This document shows, piece after piece, positions 1,669 through 61,300 of a stretch of 64,000 nucleotides of DNA. Position numbers and translations under genes: made by a program. Source of the DNA: Clostridia bacterium (GTDB taxonomy: Bacteria > Bacillota > Clostridia > CAKSNL01 > HGM11501); NCBI GenBank assembly GCA_045545475.1, contig JAZQAZ010000047.1, positions 1-64,000 of the forward strand, in the 5' to 3' direction. The notes under the pieces are model-generated. The model saw nothing but the letters and a program-made list of their open reading frames with translations, was not told the DNA's origin and made no database searches. Position 1 is the first letter of the stretch; each line of letters starts with the position of its first letter.

Positions 1669-2460
1669 TTACAGTTCCTTTTTTCTGTATTTAAGTGGAG
1701 ATATGCCAAACTCCTTTTTAAAAAGATAGATAAAATAGCTGGTGTCGTTAAATCCCGAATCCAGAGCGACTTCCGTAACGGAAAGGTCGGTCTCCCGTAA
1801 AAGAATCAAAGCATCACGAAGCTTTAAGGAGTTTAAATATGCACGGAGCGTCATACCGCAGTTTGCCTTGAACAGATGACTTATGTGGGATTTACTCCTC
1901 GAAAAGCTGGCGGCAAGAGCTGAAAGGGAAATATTCTTGTGATATTCGGAAAGAAAATTTATTATGCGGTCAAATTCATTGTCGGATTCTGCTTTGTTCT
2001 CATAAATCAAAGTTGTAAGCATATGAGCCAGTGGCGGAATTAAAATGTTTAACTTATCTTCGGGGATTTTGCTTTTTAAGGCAGAGTTCCAAAGAGAGCC
2101 TTCAGCCTTAGTGCCCTCTGACATATAGCCGCTTACACAAATATAACCTACGGCAGAATCTTTTAAAAACAACGGATATATAAATTCTGTAACTCCGGCG
2201 TGGCAGGTTGAAAGAATACTTTCGTTCTTTTTGCATCTTCTTAAAATGTTCTCCTGATTTTTAAGACATAAAGATTGTTTTAATCCCTTTACTTTAAGGC
2301 AATAAGCATTAGTATGAAAGTTCAATGGCTGTATAAAACGGATTAAGGCAGGGGAGAGACGACCGTAAAAGTTTTTGTCGAAATGCAGGGAAAGTAAAAG
2401 TGAGTGTTCTTTCTTGAGATAAGCTATATAATTTTTGACATTATCTATTAAAGTATCCAT
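1669..2460 (-). CDS. AraC family regulator with PocR-like N-terminal sensor
   Basis: CHAGVTEFIYP sensor motif; C-terminal SVTEVALDSGFNDTSYFIYLFKKEFGISPLKYR. Confidence 0.85.
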   Translation of the reverse strand: MDTLIDNVKNYIAYLKKEHSLLLSLHFDKNFYGRLSPALIRFIQPLNFHTNAYCLKVKGLKQSLCLKNQENILRRCKKNESILSTCHAGVTEFIYPLFLKDSAVGYICVSGYMSEGTKAEGSLWNSALKSKIPEDKLNILIPPLAHMLTTLIYENKAESDNEFDRIINFLSEYHKNISLSALAASFSRSKSHISHLFKANCGMTLRAYLNSLKLRDALILLRETDLSVTEVALDSGFNDTSYFIYLFKKEFGISPLKYRKKEL

Positions 2461-2569
2461 AGTTTTGCACTTTCTTTATATTTTTGACTTTTTTTATTAT
2501 AGAATGTTTATTAAAATATAATATAATTATAGCATAAGGGATCTTTATAGTCAAGAAAGGGGTATTTTT

Positions 2570-4345
2570 ATGCTTGATAAAAAAATTATAAATACAGACC
2601 TTTGTGTAATAGGCGGAGGAATGGCTGGCATTGCCGCCGCAATTTCTGCCGCAAGAGAGGGCATAAAGGTTGTCCTTATGCACGAGCGTGCGGTTCTTGG
2701 CGGAAATGCCTCCTCCGAAATTCGTATGTGGATTTGTGGCTCTCAGGGTAAAAATAACCGTGAGACGGGAATTATCGAGGAAATTGCCCTGGAAAACTTA
2801 TACAGAAACCCCACAAAGAGCTATGCCGTGTGGGACACGGTACTTTATGATTTTGTAAAGCGCGAGAAAAACATAACCCTGCTTCTTAACTGTTCCTGTA
2901 TGGATGCTGAAACTGAGGAAGGTACCTTCAAATACGGAAGAACAAAGAAAATTACTTCCGTTACAGGCTGGCAGATGACAACGCAGTGCTTTTATGAGGT
3001 TAAGGCAAAATTTTTCTGTGACTCATCAGGTGACAGCATCTTAGCCCCCTTAACGGGAGCAGAATTCAAAATCGGAAGAGAGGGAAAAGATGAATTTTCC
3101 GAGGATACAGAAAGGGAAGAGGCGGACAATTTCACCATGGGAATGAGTTGCCTTATTCAGGGAAGGGAAACAGATAAAAAGATTGAATATAAGGCTCCCG
3201 AATGTGCAACGCCTCTTACGGAAGAAAACTTCAATCACAGAAACCTTAATATAAAAAGTGACTACGAAAACTACTGGTATTTAGAGCTTGGCGGGGACAA
3301 AAACATCATTTCCGATACAGAAGTGCTTCGTGACGAGCTTATCGGTCTTGCCACAGGTACCTGGGACTACATAAAAAATTCCGGCAAGTTTGATTCAGAA
3401 ACCTGGGAGCTTGACTTTTTAGGATTTCTCCCCGGCAAAAGGGAATCAAGGAGGATGGTGGGAGAAGTAATGATTTCCCAGAGAGATGTCTCGGACGGTG
3501 TTATTTTCCACGATGAGATTGCCTATGGCGGATGGCCTCTTGATGACCATTTCCCGGGAGGCTTTTATCACAAGGGAGCACCCAACACCAACCGTATGAC
3601 GCCTGCACCTTACTCCATACCTTACCGTGCACTTTATTCTAAAAACGTGGAAAATCTTTTCTTTGCAGGAAGAAACATAAGCATGACTCATATGGCAATG
3701 AGCAGTATCCGTGTTATGGCAACTTGTGCACTTTTAGGTGAAGCGGTGGGAAAGGCGGCAAGCTTAGCTGTCAGAAATTCCCTTACACCCCATGGTGTAT
3801 ATGTTGAAAAAATGGGCGAGCTTCAGACTCTTTTGCAAAATGAAGACTCCTTCCTTCCTCACATAAAGCGTAAAATTTCTCCTCTCTGCAAAAATGCCGC
3901 ATTAAGCGGAGATGAGACTTTAAGAAACGGCGAAGACAGAATTCATAAGCTATACGGAGAAAAAACACCATACTTTGTAGAGAAAGGTAAAGATATAAGC
4001 TATCAGTTTAAAGAATCAAAGGTGAGCGAAATACATATCGTATTTGACAGCGATCTGGAAAGATGCACGCTTCCCGGCTCCGAGTGCGAAAGAATACATT
4101 CCACCCGTGCAAATACAAGGCTTGACAGCCCCGTGATGCATATGCCGAAAACACTCTGCCGTGAGTTTAAGCTGATTGGAGAACTTAACGGAGAAAAGAC
4201 AGAACTTTTGCACGTCACCGACAACAGAAAAAGATGTTATCATATAACTCAAGATAGCACTTTCGATTGCCTTACACTTGTCCCTATTGATATATGGGAT
4301 ACTGATGCAGAAGAAATCCCGGTAATTTCATTTGATTTTAAATAA
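2570..4345 (+). CDS. FAD-dependent oxidoreductase (FAD_oxidored family)
   Basis: DLCVIGGGMAGIAAAISAAREG, LGGNASSEIR, KRESRR, PYSIPYRALY, FFAGRNIS. Confidence 0.85.
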   Translation: MLDKKIINTDLCVIGGGMAGIAAAISAAREGIKVVLMHERAVLGGNASSEIRMWICGSQGKNNRETGIIEEIALENLYRNPTKSYAVWDTVLYDFVKREKNITLLLNCSCMDAETEEGTFKYGRTKKITSVTGWQMTTQCFYEVKAKFFCDSSGDSILAPLTGAEFKIGREGKDEFSEDTEREEADNFTMGMSCLIQGRETDKKIEYKAPECATPLTEENFNHRNLNIKSDYENYWYLELGGDKNIISDTEVLRDELIGLATGTWDYIKNSGKFDSETWELDFLGFLPGKRESRRMVGEVMISQRDVSDGVIFHDEIAYGGWPLDDHFPGGFYHKGAPNTNRMTPAPYSIPYRALYSKNVENLFFAGRNISMTHMAMSSIRVMATCALLGEAVGKAASLAVRNSLTPHGVYVEKMGELQTLLQNEDSFLPHIKRKISPLCKNAALSGDETLRNGEDRIHKLYGEKTPYFVEKGKDISYQFKESKVSEIHIVFDSDLERCTLPGSECERIHSTRANTRLDSPVMHMPKTLCREFKLIGELNGEKTELLHVTDNRKRCYHITQDSTFDCLTLVPIDIWDTDAEEIPVISFDFK

Positions 4346-11107: not shown

Positions 11108-11201
11108 CCGAACGAATAAGGATTTGAACGAAGTCATAGGACTTTTCCTTTGAAAAGTCCGAAGGTTTTTCCGAGTAGGAAAAACTCAAATCCTAGTTCG
11201 G
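11108..11201. repeat. tRNA T-arm mirror element, copy 1 (Gln-matched)
   Basis: inverted T-arm copy AGGATTTGAAC (11119-11129), core GAAGTCATAGG plus two hairpins, direct copy TCAAATCCTAGTTCGG (11186-11201 = 11041-11056). Confidence 0.85.
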
Positions 11202-22263: not shown

Positions 22264-22770
22264 ATGGAGGCTTTATCAAATCGTAAACCGACAAGGCTAA
22301 AAGGGTATGATTACAGTATGCCGGGAGCATATTTTGTTACGGTATGCACGAAAAACAAGAAATGTATATTGGGTAAAATCGTAGGGGACGGCGATTTCGA
22401 CGTCCCGAAAATGAATTTAACAAAATGCGGCACTGTTATAGAGAAACACTTGAATTTAATGAATGAAAAATATAATCATATAAAAATTAACAGTTATGTA
22501 ATTATGCCTAATCATATTCATTTAATCTTAAATATTTCAGATTTTGTTGGCGGTGCGTCGGAAACCGCCGCACCCTACAATAATGAAATCTCAAAATTTA
22601 TATCTCTGTTAAAGCGGTATTCTAACAGAGAATGTAGCGAAAATCTTTTTCAGCGGTCATTTCACGACCATATAATACGCAATGAAAACGATTATCTTAA
22701 AATATCGGAATATATAGAAACCAATGTTTTGAAATGGAAACAGGATTGCTTTTACGACGGCACTCATTAA
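22264..22770 (+). mobile_element. REP-associated tyrosine transposase (RAYT/TnpA-REP, HUH Y1 nuclease)
   Basis: RKPTRLKGYDYS..GAYFVTVCT, YVIMPNHIH (HUH), FQRSFHDHIIR, catalytic EYIETN. Confidence 0.9.
22381..22578. repeat. inverted pair of GTAG-type REPs inside the RAYT gene
   Basis: GTAG-GGGACGGCG-ATTT-CGACGTCCC-G (22381-22407) and, on minus strand, GTAG-GGTGCGGCGG-TTT-CCGACGCACC-G (22551-22578). Confidence 0.85.
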
Positions 22771-54506: not shown

Positions 54507-55388
54507 ATGGATTATGTAGCACGTGCCATTACGATGGATGGTTTTGTGAGGATATATGCGGCAAACACCACAGAGCTTGTAAATGAAGCTGCGAAAATTC
54601 ACGGATGCAGTGCAACTGCGGCAGCTGCTCTTGGAAGAACACTCACTGCAACAGCAATAATTGGTGCAATGATAAAGGATGAAGATACTTCTGTTACTGT
54701 TCAGGTAGACGGTGGAGGCTCAATTGGCAAAATATGCACGGTTACAGACGGAAGTGCTTTTGTAAGAGGGTATTGCACCAACCCCATGGCGGATCTTCCT
54801 ACAAAGGCAAACGGCCATCTTGATGTGGGCGGAATTGTGGGAACAGACGGATATCTCGGTATAATAAAGGACTATGGAATGAAGGAACCTTATGTGGGAC
54901 ATGTGGAACTTGTATCGGGAGAAATTGCCGAGGATTTTACAAAATATTTCGCAGAGAGTGAGCAGACACCCTCTGCCGTAGGTCTTGGTGTACTTGTTGA
55001 TAAAGATTTGTCAATAAAAAGTGCCGGAGGATATATAATACAGCTCCTCCCCGGTGCGACAGATGAACATATTGAGGACATCGAAAAGTCACTTAAAGCA
55101 TTCGGAAGCGTTACGGAGGCAATAGAAAAGGGAATGACCCCGGAAGAGATAGCTGAAAGTCTTATGAGTGACCACAGCATGTTTTTTTATGACAACGTGG
55201 AAACCGGATATTTTTGCCCATGCTCTGAAGAAAGAATGGAAAGAGCATTAATTGCCATAGGGAAGAAGGACCTCAAAGAAATAATAGATACCGATGGGCA
55301 TGCTGAACTTAAATGTCATTTTTGCAGACGTAACTTTGACTTTTCAAAGGAGCAGCTTCTTGAAATATTAAATAAAGCACAACAGTAA
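54507..55388 (+). CDS. hslO: Hsp33 redox-regulated chaperone
   Basis: ALGRTLT, SGEIAEDF..YFAESEQTPS, CPCS...CHFC zinc site. Confidence 0.95.
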   Translation: MDYVARAITMDGFVRIYAANTTELVNEAAKIHGCSATAAAALGRTLTATAIIGAMIKDEDTSVTVQVDGGGSIGKICTVTDGSAFVRGYCTNPMADLPTKANGHLDVGGIVGTDGYLGIIKDYGMKEPYVGHVELVSGEIAEDFTKYFAESEQTPSAVGLGVLVDKDLSIKSAGGYIIQLLPGATDEHIEDIEKSLKAFGSVTEAIEKGMTPEEIAESLMSDHSMFFYDNVETGYFCPCSEERMERALIAIGKKDLKEIIDTDGHAELKCHFCRRNFDFSKEQLLEILNKAQQ

Positions 55389-55451
55389 TTTTTTGCCGGA
55401 TTTGACAGAAACTTGAAAAACAGGTATTATGTAAATCAAGAGGTGATTTGT

Positions 55452-56540
55452 ATGAAAAAAATACTTACCTTTATCGGAGCGTTTACTTTGACTTTTATGA
55501 TGTTTGTTTTACCTTCGGAAGCGATAAGGATAACAAACAGTCCTGTATCTATGACAATGGCTGCAGAAAGCGGAGAAGTGGTATTTACCATAAACGACGT
55601 GGAGATATATCCTTCGCTGTATTATGCTGAAGGCGGAAGTTGTGCAAAGAAGCTTGAAATATGGATAACCGAAAACCGTATTGCGGAAAACCCCGAGTTT
55701 TTAATCTATTGTTACGATAAGGACGGCAATCATATAGATTCAGAGTATATCACGATGAAATATGATAACAGATATTCTCAGTATTGCGGATGCGTTTATG
55801 CCGATGTAAACACTGCCAGCGTTGAAATTCAGCCTGCAAAGCCGGGAAGCTGGTTTAATTCTTATTATTATTGCCGCTATGAAGGAATATCTGCAGATGA
55901 CGGCAGAAAACTTACTGTGCTTGACTTGCTTGTTCCCGATTACGAAGCTGTAGGATGGCACGGTGATGTTAATCTTTACGCACTTGACGGAAGAGAGCTT
56001 AAGGTTGCGTACTGCGATGTGGCCGCCTACAAAGCTGTGGGGTGGTATGAATGGGAAGATATCAAGATGATAGAATTCAGAGACTACTTCAGTAAGGGAA
56101 TTAACGACTGGGATTATGAATGTATACTTGAAAAAGTGGATACATTAAAAACTCTCATTAAAAATCCGTCTTATTTGCAGGAGTTGTCGGACGCTCAGTG
56201 CAAAGCTATGGATAAGTGGAGAGTGGAGCTTAATGCTCCGATGGCCCTGGTTGACTATCATGTTTTGTATAATGAGAAGGACGGCAAAGAATATCTGGCC
56301 ATTGAACTTCGTAATGTTTCCTACGGAACGATTTTATCATACAAAGCCGGATTCGTATGCCACGATAACGCAGGGACTATGATAAGAGAAGAAAATATAT
56401 ATTCTTCTGAAAGTACCGAACTTAATCCCGGAGAAAAGAAGATATTTTATTTTCAGTTGGATAATTACAATACGGATTATATCAGCAATTTTACCGTCAG
56501 AAGTGTCGTATTTAGTGACGGAACTTCCTGGAACGGTTAA
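55452..56540 (+). CDS. hypothetical exported protein with short internal repeat
   Basis: signal peptide MKKILTF..EA; two A.DGR.L.V...V..Y.AVGW repeats; GGAGG RBS. Confidence 0.7.
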   Translation: MKKILTFIGAFTLTFMMFVLPSEAIRITNSPVSMTMAAESGEVVFTINDVEIYPSLYYAEGGSCAKKLEIWITENRIAENPEFLIYCYDKDGNHIDSEYITMKYDNRYSQYCGCVYADVNTASVEIQPAKPGSWFNSYYYCRYEGISADDGRKLTVLDLLVPDYEAVGWHGDVNLYALDGRELKVAYCDVAAYKAVGWYEWEDIKMIEFRDYFSKGINDWDYECILEKVDTLKTLIKNPSYLQELSDAQCKAMDKWRVELNAPMALVDYHVLYNEKDGKEYLAIELRNVSYGTILSYKAGFVCHDNAGTMIREENIYSSESTELNPGEKKIFYFQLDNYNTDYISNFTVRSVVFSDGTSWNG

Positions 56541-56620
56541 AAATACAGGTGCGGTTTTTCCGTACCTGTATTTTGAAAAAATGCTATGATAGAATTTTTA
56601 TAAAAAACTTAAAAAAATGC

Positions 56621-56753
56621 TTGACAAAAGTGTGGGCATGTGTTATTATATTCAAGCACACCAAGTGGTTACAGAGGCGAAAAACTTAATAAAAAACTTT
56701 TTTCAAAAAAATGAAAAAAAGTTCTTGACAAACGGTTCTGATTATGGTATAAT
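56621..56753 (+). promoter_or_regulatory. tandem sigma-A promoters of the tRNA operon
   Basis: TTGACA(56621)-17-TATTAT and TTGACA(56725)-17-TATAAT, each with A-tracts upstream. Confidence 0.85.
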
Positions 56754-56777
56754 AAATTCTGTTGTTGAAAAAGAAAT

Positions 56778-56853
56778 GGGAGCATAGCTCAGTTGGGAGA
56801 GCATCTGCCTTACAAGCAGAGGGTCATAGGTTCGAGCCCTATTGTTCCCACCA
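56778..56853 (+). tRNA. tRNA-Val (TAC)
   Basis: TCTGC-CTTACAA-GCAGA, 76 nt, CCA. Confidence 0.96.
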
Positions 56854-56860
56854 TTTTTTT

Positions 56861-56937
56861 GGCCTGGTAGTTCAGCTGGTTAGAACGCTAGCCTGTCACG
56901 CTAGAGGTCGTGGGTTCGAGTCCCATCCAGGTCGCCA
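56861..56937 (+). tRNA. tRNA-Asp (GTC)
   Basis: CTAGC-CTGTCAC-GCTAG, G73, CCA. Confidence 0.96.
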
Positions 56938-56942
56938 TTTTT

Positions 56943-57018
56943 GCCTCTGTAGCTCAGTTGGTAGAGCAAAGGACTGAAAATCCTTGTGTCACTGGTTCGA
57001 TTCCAGTCGGAGGCACCA
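56943..57018 (+). tRNA. tRNA-Phe (GAA)
   Basis: AAGGA-CTGAAAA-TCCTT, CCA. Confidence 0.96.
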
Positions 57019-57025
57019 GGTAAAT

Positions 57026-57100
57026 GCGGGAGTGGCTCAGTGGTAGAGCGTCACCTTGCCAAGGTGAACGTCGCGAGTTCGAATCTCGTCTTCCGCTCCA
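57026..57100 (+). tRNA. tRNA-Gly (GCC)
   Basis: TCACC-TTGCCAA-GGTGA, U73, CCA. Confidence 0.96.
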
Positions 57101-57148
57101 AAAACACAAAGGAGACGCGTCAGATTTGGTGCGTCGCTTTTGTTATAA

Positions 57149-57222
57149 GGCGCCATGGCCAAGTGGTAAGGCAAAGGTCTGCAACACCTATATCCCCAGT
57201 TCGAGTCTGGGTGGCGCCTCCA
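57149..57222 (+). tRNA. tRNA-Cys (GCA)
   Basis: GGCGCCA/TGGCGCC acceptor, AGGT-CTGCAAC-ACCT, U73, CCA. Confidence 0.95.
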
Positions 57223-57223
57223 G

Positions 57224-57256
57224 AAAAAAGACTTGTCAGTTGACAAGTCTTTTTTT
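57224..57256 (+). terminator. intrinsic terminator of tRNA operon
   Basis: AAAAAAGACTTGTCA-GT-TGACAAGTCTTTTTTT. Confidence 0.85.
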
Positions 57257-57432
57257 AATGAAATTTGCCTGCGTCAAGTGAAATACGCTACGCGTATGAA
57301 ATATTGCTTCGCAATGTGAAATATGCCTTGCGGCATATGAAAAGGCAAATTTTATTTCACATTTTTCTGTAAGAAAAATATTTCATAATCCGTAGGGTTA
57401 TTTCATATCAACGAAGTTGATATTTCATTAAA
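57254..57432. repeat. symmetric 'feather' hairpin array with 11-bp terminal inverted repeats
   Basis: TTTAATGAAAT...ATTTCATTAAA ends; five TGAAAW then four ATTTCA linkers separated by short hairpins. Confidence 0.9.
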
Positions 57433-57434
57433 TA

Positions 57435-57463
57435 TTTACATATTGCTAATTCTATGTTAGAAT
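57435..57463 (+). promoter_or_regulatory. probable sigma-A promoter of four-helix-bundle gene
   Basis: TTTACA-17-TAGAAT with extended TG. Confidence 0.65.
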
Positions 57464-57483
57464 GTTAGCAGAGGTGTTTAGTT

Positions 57484-57831
57484 ATGAAGGAAAACAAACT
57501 TATAGATTTATCTACGGATTTAGCAGTTAAAATTATAAAACTCTGTGAAACGATAAAAGGACATTATTCACTTGTAAATCAGTTAGAAAGAAGTTCTACA
57601 TCAATCGGGGCAAACATTCACGAAGCTAACTATGCTCACGGAAAGAACGATTTTATTGCAAAATTACAGATTGCTTTGAAAGAATGTTATGAAACAGAAT
57701 ATTGGCTCGAGCTTTTTGTAAAGTCAGAAATTTTAGATAGAGAAACTGCGAAAAATTTATATAATCAATGTGGTACAATTCGAAAAATGTTGATTTCTTC
57801 AATCAACACTGCAAAAAAGAACAGTAATTAG
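57484..57831 (+). CDS. four-helix bundle protein (23S rRNA IVS protein / Avd-like family)
   Basis: NQLERSSTSIGANIHEA, DFIAKLQIALKECYETEYWLEL; GAGGTG RBS. Confidence 0.92.
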   Translation: MKENKLIDLSTDLAVKIIKLCETIKGHYSLVNQLERSSTSIGANIHEANYAHGKNDFIAKLQIALKECYETEYWLELFVKSEILDRETAKNLYNQCGTIRKMLISSINTAKKNSN

Positions 57832-57851
57832 AGCTGGCATCTAAACCATTC

Positions 57852-57868
57852 GGCGCCGTCCAGAAAAA
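57852..57868 (+). repeat. degenerate duplicate of tRNA-Cys 3' end (att-like)
   Basis: GGCGCCGTCCAGAAAAA vs GGCGCCTCCAGAAAAA at 57213-57228 (one inserted G). Confidence 0.65.
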
Positions 57869-57872
57869 CAAG

Positions 57873-57970
57873 CACCATAAAACAGACTCGAACGAAGTCA
57901 TAGGAAAAAATGCGGAGCATTTTGACGTAGTTTTTCAAAACTGCGTTTTGAAAAATCGAGTCTGGGTGGC
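57873..57970. repeat. tRNA T-arm mirror element, copy 2 (Cys-matched)
   Basis: inverted CAGACTCGAAC (57883-57893), core GAAGTCATAGG plus two hairpins, direct TCGAGTCTGGGTGGC (57956-57970 = 57201-57215). Confidence 0.85.
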
Positions 57971-58248
57971 AAACATCGCAAGGACTAAAAAGTCTGCTAT
58001 AAAGTCATAGGCAAAAATGTAAAGCATTTTGCCGGAGGTCAGTGGTTTGGTCAGGAAAATAAATAATGCGGGCATACAGAGAAGAGGTAGCATGATAGAG
58101 CACATCTTTCTGCGAAAGCAGAACTTTTGTTTTTAGAAGGTTGTATATAGAAAATCGTTTTACAATAAATATTTTGCTTGTATCTATTTACTTTGATACT
58201 TAGGTGTGATATACTTGGAGAAAATAATATGATAAAGGGGATAAACAT

Positions 58249-58920
58249 ATGAAAAAAGCATTATTGATATTTATGATCAGTATCAGTTTGACTTTGACAG
58301 GCTGTTCGAACGTCTCTATTGTAGATAAGGATGTAGAAAAAGAATATATCCTTAATTCTGACACTGAAGTTATTACTGAAGTCGATCTGTCTAAATTGAA
58401 CGATACTGAACTTAAATATGCTTATGAGGAAATTTTCGCAAGACACGGTAAGATATATACCGATACAAATTACGAGAAGTACTTTAACTCTAAAGATTGG
58501 TATGTTCCGAATCCCTCCTATGATGAAGATGATTTGTCTGAACTGGAGAAGGAAAATTCTGAATATATAAACGCCTATATCTTATCTAAAAAAACTGAAG
58601 ACAATGGTGACTCAGAAAATAACGCTTCTAAATTTGATGAAGATTATTTCTTTGCAAATTATTCGGATGACAATACATATATTATACCTGACAGTAGTGT
58701 GAGAAAATTGACGGTAAGCGAACTTTATAGCTATTCGTCAAGCGCTTTGGCTCTTATCCGTAATGAAATTTATGCTAGAAACGGATATATCTTTACAAAG
58801 CAGAAATACAGTGACTATTTTAACTCAAAAAGGTGGTATTCGCCAAATCCGTATTTTAATGAAAGTTGGCTAAGCAGTACTGAGAAATATAATATACAAC
58901 TTATAAAGAGTCTGGAATAG
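58249..58920 (+). CDS. lipoprotein with two YARHG domains
   Basis: lipobox LTGC; EEIFARHG..YFNSKDWY and RNEIYARNG..YFNSKRWY. Confidence 0.88.
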   Translation: MKKALLIFMISISLTLTGCSNVSIVDKDVEKEYILNSDTEVITEVDLSKLNDTELKYAYEEIFARHGKIYTDTNYEKYFNSKDWYVPNPSYDEDDLSELEKENSEYINAYILSKKTEDNGDSENNASKFDEDYFFANYSDDNTYIIPDSSVRKLTVSELYSYSSSALALIRNEIYARNGYIFTKQKYSDYFNSKRWYSPNPYFNESWLSSTEKYNIQLIKSLE

Positions 58921-58924
58921 AATT

Positions 58925-59803
58925 ATGAATTTACAAGAACAAAGAAGATTGAGAAAAAAACAACGGACCAAAATTATGGTTTTGGTGATTTTGGCATTGA
59001 TTACCGGATTTGTTGCCGGGGTGTGTTGTACAATTGCATTTACTGATAAGTATTCGATTATAATAACAAAACCTAATGAAGAAAAAATAAAGCCGGAGTC
59101 TGACGAACCGAAAACCGAAAGTGAGTTTTCGGGAGAGGTTGAGACTGAAGAAATTGAAGACAAAAAAATTTTTGCAAAAGCTAAAATAATTGCAATTGAT
59201 GCAGGACATCAGAAAAACGGGAATTTTTCACAGGAGCCTATAGCTCCCGGGGCTACACAAACCAAAGCTAAGACTTCGGGAGGAACTACCGGAGTCGCTA
59301 CAAAAATCCCCGAATATCAGGTGAATTTAGAAGTGGCTCTTTTGCTTGAGGAAGAATTGATATCAAGGGGATATGAAGTGATTATGATTCGAAGAAGCAA
59401 TGACGTCGATATAAGTAACTCTCAAAGAGCCATGGTAGCGAATGATGCAAATGCAGATGCCTTTATTCGTATACATTGCAACGGAGCCGAAAACAGCAAT
59501 GCTAAAGGAGCACTTACACTGTGTCAGACTTCGGAAAATCCTTATTGCGGAAATTTATATGATCAGAGTCGTTCTTTGTCTGAATTTGTGGTTGACGGAT
59601 TGTGCGAAGAGACCGGGGCTGCCAACCTGGGAGTTACAGAGACGGATACTATGAGCGGCATTAATTGGTGCCAAGTTCCCGTTACAATTGTTGAAATGGG
59701 ATTTATGACTAATTACGAAGAAGATATACTTCTTTGTGATACTTCTTATCAGAAGAAGCTTGCGATTGGAATAGCTAATGGAATTGATGATTTCTTTGCT
59801 TAG
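58925..59803 (+). CDS. membrane-anchored N-acetylmuramoyl-L-alanine amidase (Amidase_3)
   Basis: IAIDAGH, EYQVNL, IRIHCN, PVTIVEMGFMTN. Confidence 0.9.
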   Translation: MNLQEQRRLRKKQRTKIMVLVILALITGFVAGVCCTIAFTDKYSIIITKPNEEKIKPESDEPKTESEFSGEVETEEIEDKKIFAKAKIIAIDAGHQKNGNFSQEPIAPGATQTKAKTSGGTTGVATKIPEYQVNLEVALLLEEELISRGYEVIMIRRSNDVDISNSQRAMVANDANADAFIRIHCNGAENSNAKGALTLCQTSENPYCGNLYDQSRSLSEFVVDGLCEETGAANLGVTETDTMSGINWCQVPVTIVEMGFMTNYEEDILLCDTSYQKKLAIGIANGIDDFFA

Positions 59804-60007
59804 TAGAAAGAATCGCTGTTGTGAAGTAGCAAAATATAAGTAGTTACATGGTGGTTTTGGTATATGCTTTTGCTTGCTAAATTCATTTAGAAGGACTTTT
59901 CATCTTAACGCATTTCCTTTCCCGCCTGCAAAACACAATAGTATAATTGAAAGTGGCATACCTAAGAGTATAATACTTACATACATTTTGAAAGCGGATG
60001 ATTTTTT

Positions 60008-61300
60008 ATGAAAAAGATGCTGGCACGCTACCCAAAGGGAAACCCGAGACGTAAGTGGAAGCAGGATAATTTCGTGCTTTCTGTTACAAATGCCTCGCTC
60101 ATGGGACTGGAATACGGAAGCGAGTCCGATTTGGAAAAGGCGAGACGTGGCATGAAAACTGCAAAAGAAGCAGGCTTTAATATGGTTGAACTTCTCTGGG
60201 CAAGTCCTGTTATGGGTATGGAATCGGTTAAAATGGCAGAGCAGATTTCCATGCCCCTCATATATCAGAATATGCTTCGCTTCGGTGGAATGGGATACAG
60301 AAAAGAGAAAAATATAAAGCCGGAAGATAACGACCTTGAAGGCGTAATAAAAGATACAGCACCCTGGAAATCGGTTGTCGGTCTTTGCGTTTATGATGAG
60401 CCGCTTGACACCGAACAGCGTGAGTTAGCCAGAAAGCTTATTGACCGTATGGAGGAAATCTGTCCCGAAAAGCTTCCCTTCGCCTGCACGGATGCGGGAA
60501 AAATTGACGAAATGGCTGATGAAGTTGATCCCGCACAGCTATCCTTTGACCAGTATGCCTTTGGCGGCTGGGCAGGAGGCGGTATGGACAGGGAAAATCA
60601 GATGGACAGATGTCTTGGATACTGGGATAAAATGGAGATTGCAAAAAATGCGGCAAAACGCATTGATGCACCATTCTGGTTTTACTATCAGGGACACGAG
60701 CTTTCCTATAATCCCGTTTATGACGATTATTCATTTGCTGCATCCCGTATGATGGCAAACGCCGCACTTCTTTACGGTGCAAAGGGCGTATCCTGCTATA
60801 ATGAATTTGACGGTGCGTTTAATCCGGAAAACGGAGGACACGGCATTTATTTTGATGAGCAGCTTAAGCTTAATCATGAAATTGCAGCTCTCGGAAATAC
60901 GCTTATGGCACTTAGGTGCGAGAGGGTTATTCACGACGAAAGCCTTAAAACAGAAAATGCGAAGGTTCACTTTGCGACCATGGAGGAAAGCAAGCTCTTA
61001 AAAGGAAAACTTCCCAAACGAATTTCTATTTCCGAATTTTCGGATGATTACGGAAACGATTACCTTATGGTATTAAACCGCGATTACAAATATGACAGGC
61101 GATATGTCCTTGACTTAAAGGAAGAAAGACGCGTATGGCGTGTAAGCAATACTGACGGAGAACAGCATCTTGCCTTTGAAGGAGGTAAAAATAAGATAAT
61201 GGGAACCCTTACACCGGGAAGTATTGCTCTCTACCGTTTGCAGAAGTTGGAAGAAGAGCCTTATGCGATAGAGTATTATCTTGATAAAGGAACATTTTAG
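60008..61300 (+). CDS. hypothetical protein, possible clan-A glycoside hydrolase fold
   Basis: KEAGFN, YDEP, LSFDQY, PFWFYYQ, ALLYGAKG motifs; function not assignable. Confidence 0.55.
   Translation: MKKMLARYPKGNPRRKWKQDNFVLSVTNASLMGLEYGSESDLEKARRGMKTAKEAGFNMVELLWASPVMGMESVKMAEQISMPLIYQNMLRFGGMGYRKEKNIKPEDNDLEGVIKDTAPWKSVVGLCVYDEPLDTEQRELARKLIDRMEEICPEKLPFACTDAGKIDEMADEVDPAQLSFDQYAFGGWAGGGMDRENQMDRCLGYWDKMEIAKNAAKRIDAPFWFYYQGHELSYNPVYDDYSFAASRMMANAALLYGAKGVSCYNEFDGAFNPENGGHGIYFDEQLKLNHEIAALGNTLMALRCERVIHDESLKTENAKVHFATMEESKLLKGKLPKRISISEFSDDYGNDYLMVLNRDYKYDRRYVLDLKEERRVWRVSNTDGEQHLAFEGGKNKIMGTLTPGSIALYRLQKLEEEPYAIEYYLDKGTF

Follow-up and report, generated by a model that had tools for sequence, protein, structure and literature searches.

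A probable integrase-less cassette of gut Clostridia that joins the Gut-1 hairpin motif to a PF05635 gene behind tRNA ends

The proteins of PF05635 reportedly form a large family that has been known since the 1993 work on intervening sequences (IVSs), and that is said to have been solved twice by structural genomics without a function having been assigned. In the IVS of Coxiella, according to the passages of PMC4990558 that deal with it, tandem GACAGAT heptamers precede the S23p open reading frame (ORF), the element has a 28-bp terminal stem, and it is excised by RNase III; the same passages cite an older idea that the IVS ORF serves mobility. The Gut-1 motif is presented, in the part of Weinberg et al. 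2010 that describes it, as a probable noncoding RNA "from human gut only" and is given no function there (PMC2864571), and Rfam classes it as "Gene; sRNA" (small RNA). Here we analyze a locus at which these two families stand side by side. It is located in a stretch of 64,000 nt of contig JAZQAZ010000047.1 of Clostridia bacterium (assembly GCA_045545475.1), hereafter called the window, in a source genome of 2.74 Mb. Behind a tRNA-Cys gene of the window lies a mirror-symmetric array of short hairpins and heptamers, which is followed by a gene for a four-helix-bundle (4HB) protein of PF05635. The array consists of two inverted copies of Gut-1 (RF01706), one per strand, and both matches span model positions 1-77 of 77 (the curated gathering cut-off of RF01706 is 50 bits). 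The original prediction, made from the sequence of the locus alone, had put array and gene forward as the best candidate for an undescribed system; the array, however, was already catalogued, with its function unexplained.

We put at about 0.6 the probability that positions 57223-57851 are a cargo-less copy of a widespread, integrase-less, IVS-like cassette of gut Clostridia, whose protein reads its own heptamer ladder. The existence of the cassette family, its base-exact docking behind tRNAs and the correspondence between heptamer and protein are well supported. What appears to be new is the linkage of Gut-1 with a 4HB gene and with tRNA ends, whereas the Gut-1 sequence family itself is known. 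A literature search, with many subscription journals and the comments on Gut-1 in Additional file 1 of Weinberg et al. 2010 outside its coverage, returned no paper linking Gut-1 to tRNAs or to PF05635; those comments may bear on the novelty of the linkage.

Array and gene form a conserved two-part unit, as the original prediction had proposed. A search with one genome per species yielded at least 546 stretches in which a relative of the window protein is encoded. The counts over 80 loci given below refer to the best 80 of these at least 546 stretches, the proteins of which are 77-97% identical to the window protein; they come from metagenome-assembled genomes (MAGs) of gut and rumen Clostridia, with Oscillospiraceae, Acutalibacteraceae, Ruminococcus and Faecousia among their labels. 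In 77 of the 80 loci, chains of TGAAA and/or TTTCA with a spacing of 15-30 nt were found within 400 nt upstream of the gene, with both arms present in 67, and chains elsewhere in the ~3.3 kb locus were found in only nine. Rfam agrees with this in all 19 loci tested, each having Gut-1 upstream of the gene. Upstream TGAAAT/ATTTCA arrays (77/80) and tRNAs (59/80), for which a check of the homologues had been suggested, are frequent among these relatives. In the source genome, Rfam identifies Gut-1 at eight loci and PF05635 is present at four places. Furthermore, a motif-agnostic scan of the 2.74 Mb, which accepted any 6-mer chained at least three times and followed within 160 nt by its reverse complement, also chained at least three times, returned only eight mirror arrays: four directly 5' of the four 4HB genes, and four solo. 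Within the family of the source genome, 12 of 24 PF05635 matches have Rfam Gut-1 at their 5' side and eight more have the same architecture with another heptamer. At the level of the class, a sample of 151 genomes at least 90% complete, in which kinship was ignored, contained a PF05635 match in 25 of 29 Gut-1-positive versus 26 of 121 Gut-1-negative genomes.

The heptamer changes with the protein. The two other 4HB paralogues of the source genome are preceded by an array of the same architecture, with heptamers of the types GCTAAAT/ATTTAGC (C18) and AATGATG/CATCAT (C24), and further types are found in congeners (ATATCAC, TCGATAT, ATATCGC and ACTTCAC; GTGATAT was also seen). In a tree of 22 proteins of the family, heptamer types track clades, the GTGAAAT clade having a support of 97/97 and the ATATCAC clade of 100/99. 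For a reciprocal test, the top 80 relatives of the C18 paralogue (80-97% identical) were taken, and 300 nt of upstream sequence was available for 77. Of these 77, 73 have a GCTAAAT mirror array, none has a GTGAAAT array and four have neither; in the control, the 300 nt downstream, the count was 0/77. The array of the GCTAAAT clade is located between an extended -10 and the ribosome-binding site, that is, within the 5' leader. Judged from sequence, a heptamer that changes with the protein clade fits what may be a cognate pair of protein and site.

A same-strand tRNA ends upstream of the gene in 59 of the 80 loci, and 15 identities are represented (Met, Ser, Thr, Lys, Arg, Tyr, Leu, Ala, Gly, Trp, Val, Asn, Pro, Gln and Glu). 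With the window included, the tRNA end lies 230-279 nt before the ATG in 51 of 60 loci. The junction in the loci of the relatives reads CCA/GAAAA(A)G (the slash marks the boundary), followed by a hairpin, CTTTTTTCA and the first heptamer; in the window, likewise, the first base of the cassette is the base directly 3' of the tRNA-Cys CCA. The unit is thus docked behind 15 tRNA identities, with the junction right after the CCA. In the eight loci with a longer tRNA distance, a mirror element (see below) intervenes; its last part repeats the 3' end of the tRNA together with CCA, and it is after this CCA that the cassette starts. At least 11 loci without a tRNA call by ARAGORN still show CCA/GAAAA. 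In the case of the source genome, a tRNA closely precedes six of the eight Gut-1 loci (Tyr, Arg, Lys, Cys, Trp and Leu). Relatives of the GCTAAAT type, on the other hand, are behind a tRNA in only 2 of 77 loci, and hence docking belongs to the GTGAAAT type and not to all 4HB cassettes.

Relatives with an empty site exist among the congeners. The tRNA cluster of the window is 95-98% identical in six of them up to about position 57228, and in five the match ends near the tRNA-Cys CCA. Two congeners, G004 and G011, have an empty site: after tRNA-Cys come a different terminator and, immediately behind it, the mirror element, while array and gene are both absent, which is the arrangement that removal of the segment from the window had been predicted to produce. 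The mirror element therefore predates the cassette and lies outside it. The terminators 3' of tRNA-Cys in cassette-free congeners differ from the one in the window. G007 and G009 have unrelated genes behind tRNA-Cys, and in G010 the match continues via the same terminator type into a GTTATA-type array, followed by ~4.4 kb of other genes. At tRNA-Trp, congener G002 has neither the mirror element nor the Gut-1 pair that the source genome has there, and the shared sequence resumes within about 20 nt past the last ATTTCA.

The layout of the cassette in the window is given in Table 1. The tRNA-Cys gene closes a cluster of tRNAs Val-Asp-Phe-Gly-Cys (56778-57222, + strand) that has two strong promoter-like sites at its 5' side; a terminator-like hairpin with a T-run was seen inside the cluster, between tRNA-Gly and tRNA-Cys (57114-57135). 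The hairpin of the left end (57224-57255) is a perfect 15-bp one, with an A-tract arm and a T-tract arm of 15 nt each that are 100% complementary. The promoter-like site, which is a pattern match only, lies 6 nt past the last heptamer. The earlier description of the contents between the two repeat copies (terminator, array, promoter and 4HB gene) was correct on every point. The same applies to the integrase-free character of the segment, since no ORF of at least 60 aa other than the 4HB gene, and no integrase, is encoded between the copies. The copy at 57223-57851 contains no coupled cargo gene. The motif at its right end is a feature of a subclade, and as a general end of the cassette it was ruled out: GCATCTA occurs within 130 nt of the stop codon in only 2 of 81 loci.

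The tRNA-Cys 3' end does recur about 640 bp further on with one extra base (57213-57228 versus 57852-57868), as had been reported: aligned with the 500 nt 3' of the gene, the last 25 nt of the tRNA give a local score of 15, which none of 100 shuffles reached. In addition, a T-arm/acceptor piece of tRNA-Cys (57201-57215) has an exact 15-nt repeat at 57956-57970. The GAAAAACAAGCACC sequence next to the right copy resembles the left half of the terminator located 3' of tRNA-Cys in congener G007, and the stretch 57852-57876 may be read as a relic of the tRNA end before insertion. As a hallmark of the element, however, the flanking copy failed, being local to the window. Among the relatives, when the final 16 nt of the tRNA were searched for without gaps and with up to three mismatches, a target-site duplication was detected in 0 of 59 loci; local alignment of the tRNA end gave a score of at least 10 in only 3 of 60 loci; and the tRNA suffix recurred in exact form within 1.5 kb downstream no more often than in mismatched controls. 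We therefore rejected such a duplication as a feature of the family.

Table 1. Features of the tRNA-Cys locus, in window coordinates.
Feature	Position	Strand	Basis and remarks
tRNA-Cys(GCA)	57149-57222	+	ARAGORN; Rfam tRNA 61.4 bits; last of the cluster; docking target
Left direct-repeat copy GGCGCCTCCAGAAAAA	57213-57228	+	GGCGCCTCCA from the tRNA plus GAAAAA trailer
Cassette left end: GAAAAAAG, hairpin, CTTTTTTT	57223-57257	.	Two-way, intrinsic-terminator-like; part of the cassette
Mirror array	57258-57432	both arms	175 nt
Forward array arm	57258-57348	+	(G/A)TGAAAT heptamers alternating with private short hairpins; Gut-1 match 57276-57348, 66.3 bits
Reverse array arm	57349-57432	-	Hairpins alternating with ATTTCA(C/T); Gut-1 match 57349-57430, 50.3 bits
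Promoter-like site TTTACA-17-TAGAAT	57435-57463	+	Consensus scan, 10/12 positions; TG before the -10
Ribosome-binding site AGAGGTG	57470-57476	+	Upstream of the 4HB ORF
4HB gene, 115 aa	57484-57831	+	PF05635, TIGR02436
Right-end motif GGCATCTAAACCATTC	57836-57851	+	Common to nearest relatives L088 and L092 and to solo array C9 of the source genome
Right repeat copy GGCGCCGTCCAGAAAAA	57852-57868	+	Same as GGCGCCTCCAGAAAAA plus one extra G; 16/17 nt, one indel
Right tRNA-Cys 3'-end copy (GGCGCCGTCCA) plus GAAAAACAAGCACC	57852-57876	+	Repeat comparison; comparison with L069
Mirror element	57883-57970	+	Reverse complement of tRNA-Cys T-arm (CAGACTCGAAC), GAAGTCATAGG, two hairpins, direct T-arm/acceptor piece (TCGAGTCTGGGTGGC)

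The array is built from four (G/A)TGAAAT heptamers, each with a different short hairpin behind it, and then four hairpins, each with an ATTTCA(C/T) behind it. The first forward unit, AATGAAATTTGCCT, is able to pair with AGGCAAATTTTATT at 57343-57356. In fold predictions, the 181-nt array stretch has a z of -5.8 as RNA and of -7.3 as DNA, and its minimum-energy folds form a long hairpin in which the TGAAAT units are paired to the ATTTCA units, heptamer to heptamer. Four forward heptamers are present in 61 of 77 loci, and four reverse ones in 60 of 77. The spacers of the GTGAAAT clade are diverse (112 distinct among 222 in the forward arm, and 142 among 222 in the reverse arm), and the heptamer is constant. 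Together, 385 hairpins located between heptamers contain 2140 Watson-Crick pairs, no G:T pair, nine A:C pairs and eight others. Their loops differ between the strands, being TTC, TAC and TGC on the TGAAAT strand and GAA, GTA and GCA (GNA/GNRA) on the opposite one. Moreover, by eye, the closing stem of the forward arm covaries across loci with the first hairpin (TTTGCC/GGCAAA, AAATCC/GGATTT, TTCGCC/GGCGAA and others). The lack of G:T pairs, the two-fold symmetry and the clade-dependent position of the promoter would argue against selection acting on one RNA alone, and the asymmetric loops together with the covarying closing stem would point to one strand. Considering that the element is two-fold symmetric, that its stems are free of wobble pairs and that the promoter position differs between clades, the Rfam label of an "sRNA gene" is probably misleading. 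Assembled metatranscriptome contigs of four runs consist mostly of tRNA genes of many organisms, and such contigs cannot show absence, strand, ends or expression; a few low-depth pieces of them cover the 4HB ORF (two bovine runs) and none covers the array. As a separate observation, three identical Gut-1 pairs are present in tandem with a 230-bp period in congener G011 (G011:C10:49518-50156; L021, L037), at a locus where no tRNA was called.

That the protein belongs to the 23S rRNA IVS family, as originally stated, is clear: it matches PF05635 with an E-value of 4e-27 (94.9 bits, cut-off 33.8; profile positions 2-105 of 106) and TIGR02436 with an E-value of 2e-30 (105.1 bits, cut-off 24). Its nearest solved relative is PDB 2RLD (E 1.7e-23), an entry with five chains, and a profile of 23 diverse members also matches 2GSC (XCC0516; E 5e-26), which again has five chains. 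By analogy with these entries, we infer that the window protein would be a homopentamer of four-helix bundles. Among the 23 diverse members Q33, S40, N44, E47 and E70 are invariant and R36 is nearly so. The motif R-x3-S-x3-N-x2-E, given for the family in the relevant passage of Zhang & Ye 2014, is present in the window protein as R36, S40, N44 and E47. PF05635 genes are placed in or near CRISPR-cas loci in passages of two papers, PMC3936711 and PMC10910872 (figure legend). In a phylum-wide sample, a 6-mer repeated upstream with its reverse complement repeated downstream was found for 16 of 28 PF05635 genes, versus 52 of 756 mismatched controls; the repeats that bracket these distant genes are mostly tandem heptamers, and one such locus is within a 23S rRNA gene.

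The accessory protein of diversity-generating retroelements (DGRs), Avd, folds as a four-helix bundle and assembles into a ring of five subunits. The relation to Avd claimed in the original prediction stands by fold and by the literature, PF05635 being treated as Avd-like in a passage of a review (PMC10053308), but it does not stand by sequence: neither the window protein nor the family profile matches Avd itself at E <= 0.01, and hence the label "Avd-like" rests on fold and literature. Within 55000-60500 there is no ORF for a reverse transcriptase and no template or variable repeat. The sole RVT_1 match of the source genome (C10:141866-142417; L197) is a protein of 318 aa that has, by eye, retron-like motifs. 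A link with DGRs was rejected, given that the genome has no reverse transcriptase other than this retron-like one, which is located on another contig.

Conservation among the relatives stops at the stop codon of the 4HB gene. In 37 of the 80 loci, the next ORF on the same strand overlaps this stop codon as ATGA, and in 52 it starts between -19 and +8 of the stop. We refer to these ORFs as cargo. They are small and very diverse: of 70 cargo ORFs, 35 have no Pfam family, and the others include GNAT (5), AAA_18 kinase-like (3), NUDIX (2), MazG (2), pyrophosphatase (2), DUF4279 (2) and many families found once. Pfam identified no recombinase family among the 70. The cargo is followed by recurrent 3' elements and then by a terminator, and in 6 of 19 loci by a further Gut-1 array. 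Two types of these closing elements were noted. Type A consists of two direct repeats of ~18 nt (TTTGGTCGTTCTT; L093, L094, L096, L112, L136, L142 and L148), and type B is ~150 nt long and looks structured (CATGGAGCAGCACCCCGGAAGATAGCGG, GGGTATCACAA; L113, L116, L120, L121, L129, L131, L134, L143 and L155). Both close cargo genes of unrelated cassettes and are followed by the AAAAAG-terminator and often by a new array; Rfam gave no match at E <= 0.01 for the 3' elements behind cargo genes. Stacking is seen in L088, where a solo element is followed by a full cassette, and in L093, where the order is tRNA-Arg, Gut-1, 4HB, DUF4279, 3' element, Gut-1 (GTGATAT type), truncated 4HB and a nucleotidyltransferase-like ORF. 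In the latter locus (2404-3337), the 4HB ORF truncated at its C terminus overlaps the start of an ORF with GSxGRGE...SDID, by eye a minimal nucleotidyltransferase.

The mirror element has a counterpart behind tRNA-Gln in the window (~11108-11200), and a third one was seen behind tRNA-Trp at C4 of the source genome (L006, ~1285-1468). All three consist of the reverse complement of the T-arm of their own tRNA, two hairpins and the T-arm/acceptor 3' strand repeated in direct orientation, and the GAAGTCATAGG sequence is conserved in the Gln and Cys elements. The direct tRNA copy reaches the CCA in G011 and at C4, and Gut-1 cassettes dock behind the CCA of a mirror element as they do behind a true tRNA. 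A partial second core, 75% identical and with AAGTCATAGG, is located at 57987-58037, 107 nt past the first. Rfam gave no match for mirror elements at E <= 1.

How might the parts of the cassette work together? We propose that the two arms of the array would pair, heptamer to heptamer, in single-stranded DNA or RNA, and that this pairing would arrange 7-bp helices into a ladder from which the private hairpins are extruded, so that four heptamer helices are brought together. Such a ladder would be the counterpart of the continuous heptamer-repeat stem that brackets other 4HB genes, IVSs included; the Gut-1 type could then be viewed as an IVS-like heptamer stem that has been broken up by private hairpins and shifted wholly upstream of the gene. 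A five-subunit 4HB ring, as in the solved homologues, would recognise its own heptamer ladder. The first consequence may be that the 4HB protein controls its own promoter or leader, since the array abuts the -35 here and, in the GCTAAAT clade, is part of the 5' leader. Ring and ladder together might also maintain and spread the element. A further-reaching possibility, about which we are more doubtful than confident, is that array and ring form the docking or recombination module of an undescribed, recombinase-less cassette system, in which the ring, reading its own heptamer ladder on extruded DNA, would direct a host enzyme to insert cassettes exactly behind any tRNA CCA or behind a tRNA-like end that an earlier cassette has left. 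This would generate stacks of promoter-bearing cassettes with exchangeable cargo, and it would explain both the entry of IVSs into 23S rRNA genes and the role of PF05635.

Several points weigh against a self-reading cassette. Firstly, the co-variation of heptamer and clade could stem from linked descent alone, because array and gene are adjacent and kin inherit both. Secondly, the original prediction had raised the possibility that the two occur independently, and the answer is divided: they are tightly linked (77/80), but they are separable and at times apart, as is the case for the four solo arrays of the source genome and for 4 of the 29 Gut-1-positive genomes of the class sample, which have no PF05635 match. 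In addition, the source genome contains at C20 an array of the GTTATAT/ATATCAC type (73841-74078; L007) without a 4HB gene of the matching clade; an array of this type and of the same build was also seen in G010 behind tRNA-Cys (L068). Thirdly, the active form might be RNA, single-stranded DNA or a cruciform, and the promoter lies 3' of the array here and 5' of it in the GCTAAAT clade. Since the spacing of the heptamers ranges from 16 to 28 nt, a flat operator phased along double-stranded DNA is unlikely and extruded hairpins are favoured. As for mobility, no clean pair of empty and filled sites with identical flanks was found at tRNA-Lys or tRNA-Trp in five congeners, and the regions 3' of tRNA-Cys and tRNA-Trp are replaced wholesale between species. 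No target duplication, circle junction or recombinase was found, and the tRNA-end copy of the window is not general. Finally, the IVS protein of Coxiella is apparently not made in vivo, according to a passage of PMC4990558.

The strongest of the alternatives, albeit an unlikely one, involves no mobility: the array would be an autoregulatory operator or leader of an operon of 4HB and cargo genes, and the islets would gather at tRNA 3' flanks by homologous exchange anchored in the tRNA genes. The position of the array, which abuts the promoter here and in the GCTAAAT clade separates the extended -10 from the ribosome-binding site, the operon-like ATGA overlap of the 4HB stop with the next gene in 37 of 80 loci, the wholesale differences between congeners behind tRNA-Cys and tRNA-Trp, the tRNA-end duplication not being general and the mere 2 of 77 GCTAAAT cassettes behind tRNAs would all suit this explanation. 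However, exchange anchored in a single tRNA cannot shift a cassette among 15 identities while keeping a base-exact CCA/GAAAA junction, and the gene-less solo arrays behind other tRNAs have no 4HB gene to regulate. Nor does it agree with the presence of 77-97% identical proteins in MAGs labelled as several families, or with the existence of tandem cassettes. To the idea that the segment is a decayed, integrase-borne island at tRNA-Cys, of which attL and attR were kept and most of the rest was lost, we attach a very low probability. The 3' ends of tRNAs are classical integration sites, direct repeats of the tRNA 3' end border the segment, another tRNA fragment is found downstream at 57956-57970, and G010 has ~4.4 kb of other genes at the same place. 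Against this, the segment is intact, at least 77 other genomes have it as a conserved unit, behind 15 other tRNA identities, no integrase is found beside the loci of the relatives, their 70 downstream ORFs lack any Pfam recombinase family, and the tRNA-end copies are not general.

Movement by a host enzyme is the subject of another explanation, to which we give a slim chance. According to it, the arrays are repeats like the repetitive extragenic palindromic (REP) sequences and the bacterial interspersed mosaic elements (BIMEs), moved by a host Y1 (HUH) transposase of the REP-associated tyrosine transposase (RAYT) type, with the 4HB protein as a passenger or host-derived partner. The source genome has about six Y1_Tnp-like paralogues, one of which, an ORF of ~160 aa, is in the window (22276-22758, + strand). 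In the class sample, relatives of the C30 paralogue (E <= 1e-10) are present in 16 of 29 Gut-1-positive and in 11 of 122 Gut-1-negative genomes, counts that ignore kinship and richness in mobile elements; outside the family of the source genome, among 27 genomes of relatives, they are present in three of the four Gut-1-positive genomes and in none of the 23 others. The strand-asymmetric loops (TNC, with GNA/GNRA opposite) would also fit the recognition of one DNA strand. Classical RAYT genes, though, are flanked by their REPs, whereas none of the five Y1-like genes examined in the source genome has an array within 350 nt. Moreover, 13 of the 29 Gut-1-positive genomes have no Y1 match, genome G029 has 21 Y1 matches and a single Gut-1, and the explanation does not account for the heptamer following the 4HB clade. 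A Y1 transposase as the moving enzyme is therefore a weak lead. That Gut-1 is a free-standing small RNA gene that acts in trans and is unrelated to the neighbouring 4HB gene is hardly credible to us. It has on its side the Rfam class, the description as a likely noncoding RNA in the Gut-1 passage of Weinberg et al. 2010 (PMC2864571), and the RNA-like forward arm with its closing stem that covaries, by eye, with the first hairpin. Yet the motif is always an inverted pair, so that half of it would be antisense to any single transcript; in the window it lies after a terminator and before the next promoter; there is no G:T among 2157 stem pairs, which is unusual for RNA selected for structure alone; and the linkage with the 4HB gene is tight.

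If the cassette does read its own heptamers, two orphan families, Gut-1 (catalogued in 2010) and PF05635, become each other's physical partner. The differing heptamers of the protein clades provide a natural specificity panel, for which one set of binding assays would suffice as a test. The cassette also connects tRNA-docked elements to the 30-year-old question of how IVSs spread without a recombinase. The system may be a real route of accessory-gene variation in uncultured Clostridia of the gut and rumen, considering that at least 546 stretches were found, many of which have a translationally coupled, highly variable small gene.

Compared with the described systems, the array shares with published Gut-1 the three hairpins separated by UGAAAU in each copy. 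The published motif, in the passage that describes it, is single-stranded, 77 nt long and has no stated partner (PMC2864571), whereas here it is half of a ~175-nt two-fold symmetric element that is docked at a tRNA and precedes a 4HB gene. Because the heptamer varies (GTGAAAT, GTGATAT, GCTAAAT, AATGATG, TCGATAT and others), the Rfam family covers part of a larger class. With the 23S IVSs (Leptospira; Coxiella burnetii, helix 45) the cassette has in common the protein family, insertion in a stable-RNA operon, short heptamer repeats by the ORF and complementary arms able to form a long stem; both lack a recombinase, and the route by which they spread is unexplained in both. It differs from them in being located behind tRNA-Cys and not within an rRNA helix, in having both arms upstream of the ORF, while the arms of an IVS bracket it, and in having heptamers that are interrupted by private hairpins and, in relatives, often a coupled cargo gene. 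As the cassette has its own terminator and promoter, it has no need, unlike the 23S IVS, to be excised from the transcript of its host.

The remaining likenesses are looser. According to a passage of PMC3240598, a DNA hairpin or cruciform is required at DGR targets, its loop being 5'-GRNA and its stem free in sequence; the GNA or GNRA loops on one strand of the array recall this as a lead only, and beside the 4HB gene there is neither a reverse transcriptase nor a template/variable repeat. Like REPs and BIMEs, the arrays are multi-copy clusters of short intergenic hairpins in alternating orientation, with a short conserved head, located behind genes or terminators, and Y1-like genes co-occur with them at the genome level. 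Here, however, conservation is confined to the heptamer and does not extend to the hairpin sequences, no repeats flank the Y1-like genes examined, and the arrays go together with a 4HB gene and with tRNA ends. The likeness to integrons and to clusters of attC sites lacking an integrase (CALINs) concerns cargo content and stacking only: the cargo is small and diverse, and the cassettes are stackable, with structured variable sites between them. In our comparison, which left out attC and IntI models, there is no IntI, attI or attC; moreover, a promoter and a conserved leader gene come with every cassette, and the platform on which the cassettes are docked is the 3' end of a tRNA.

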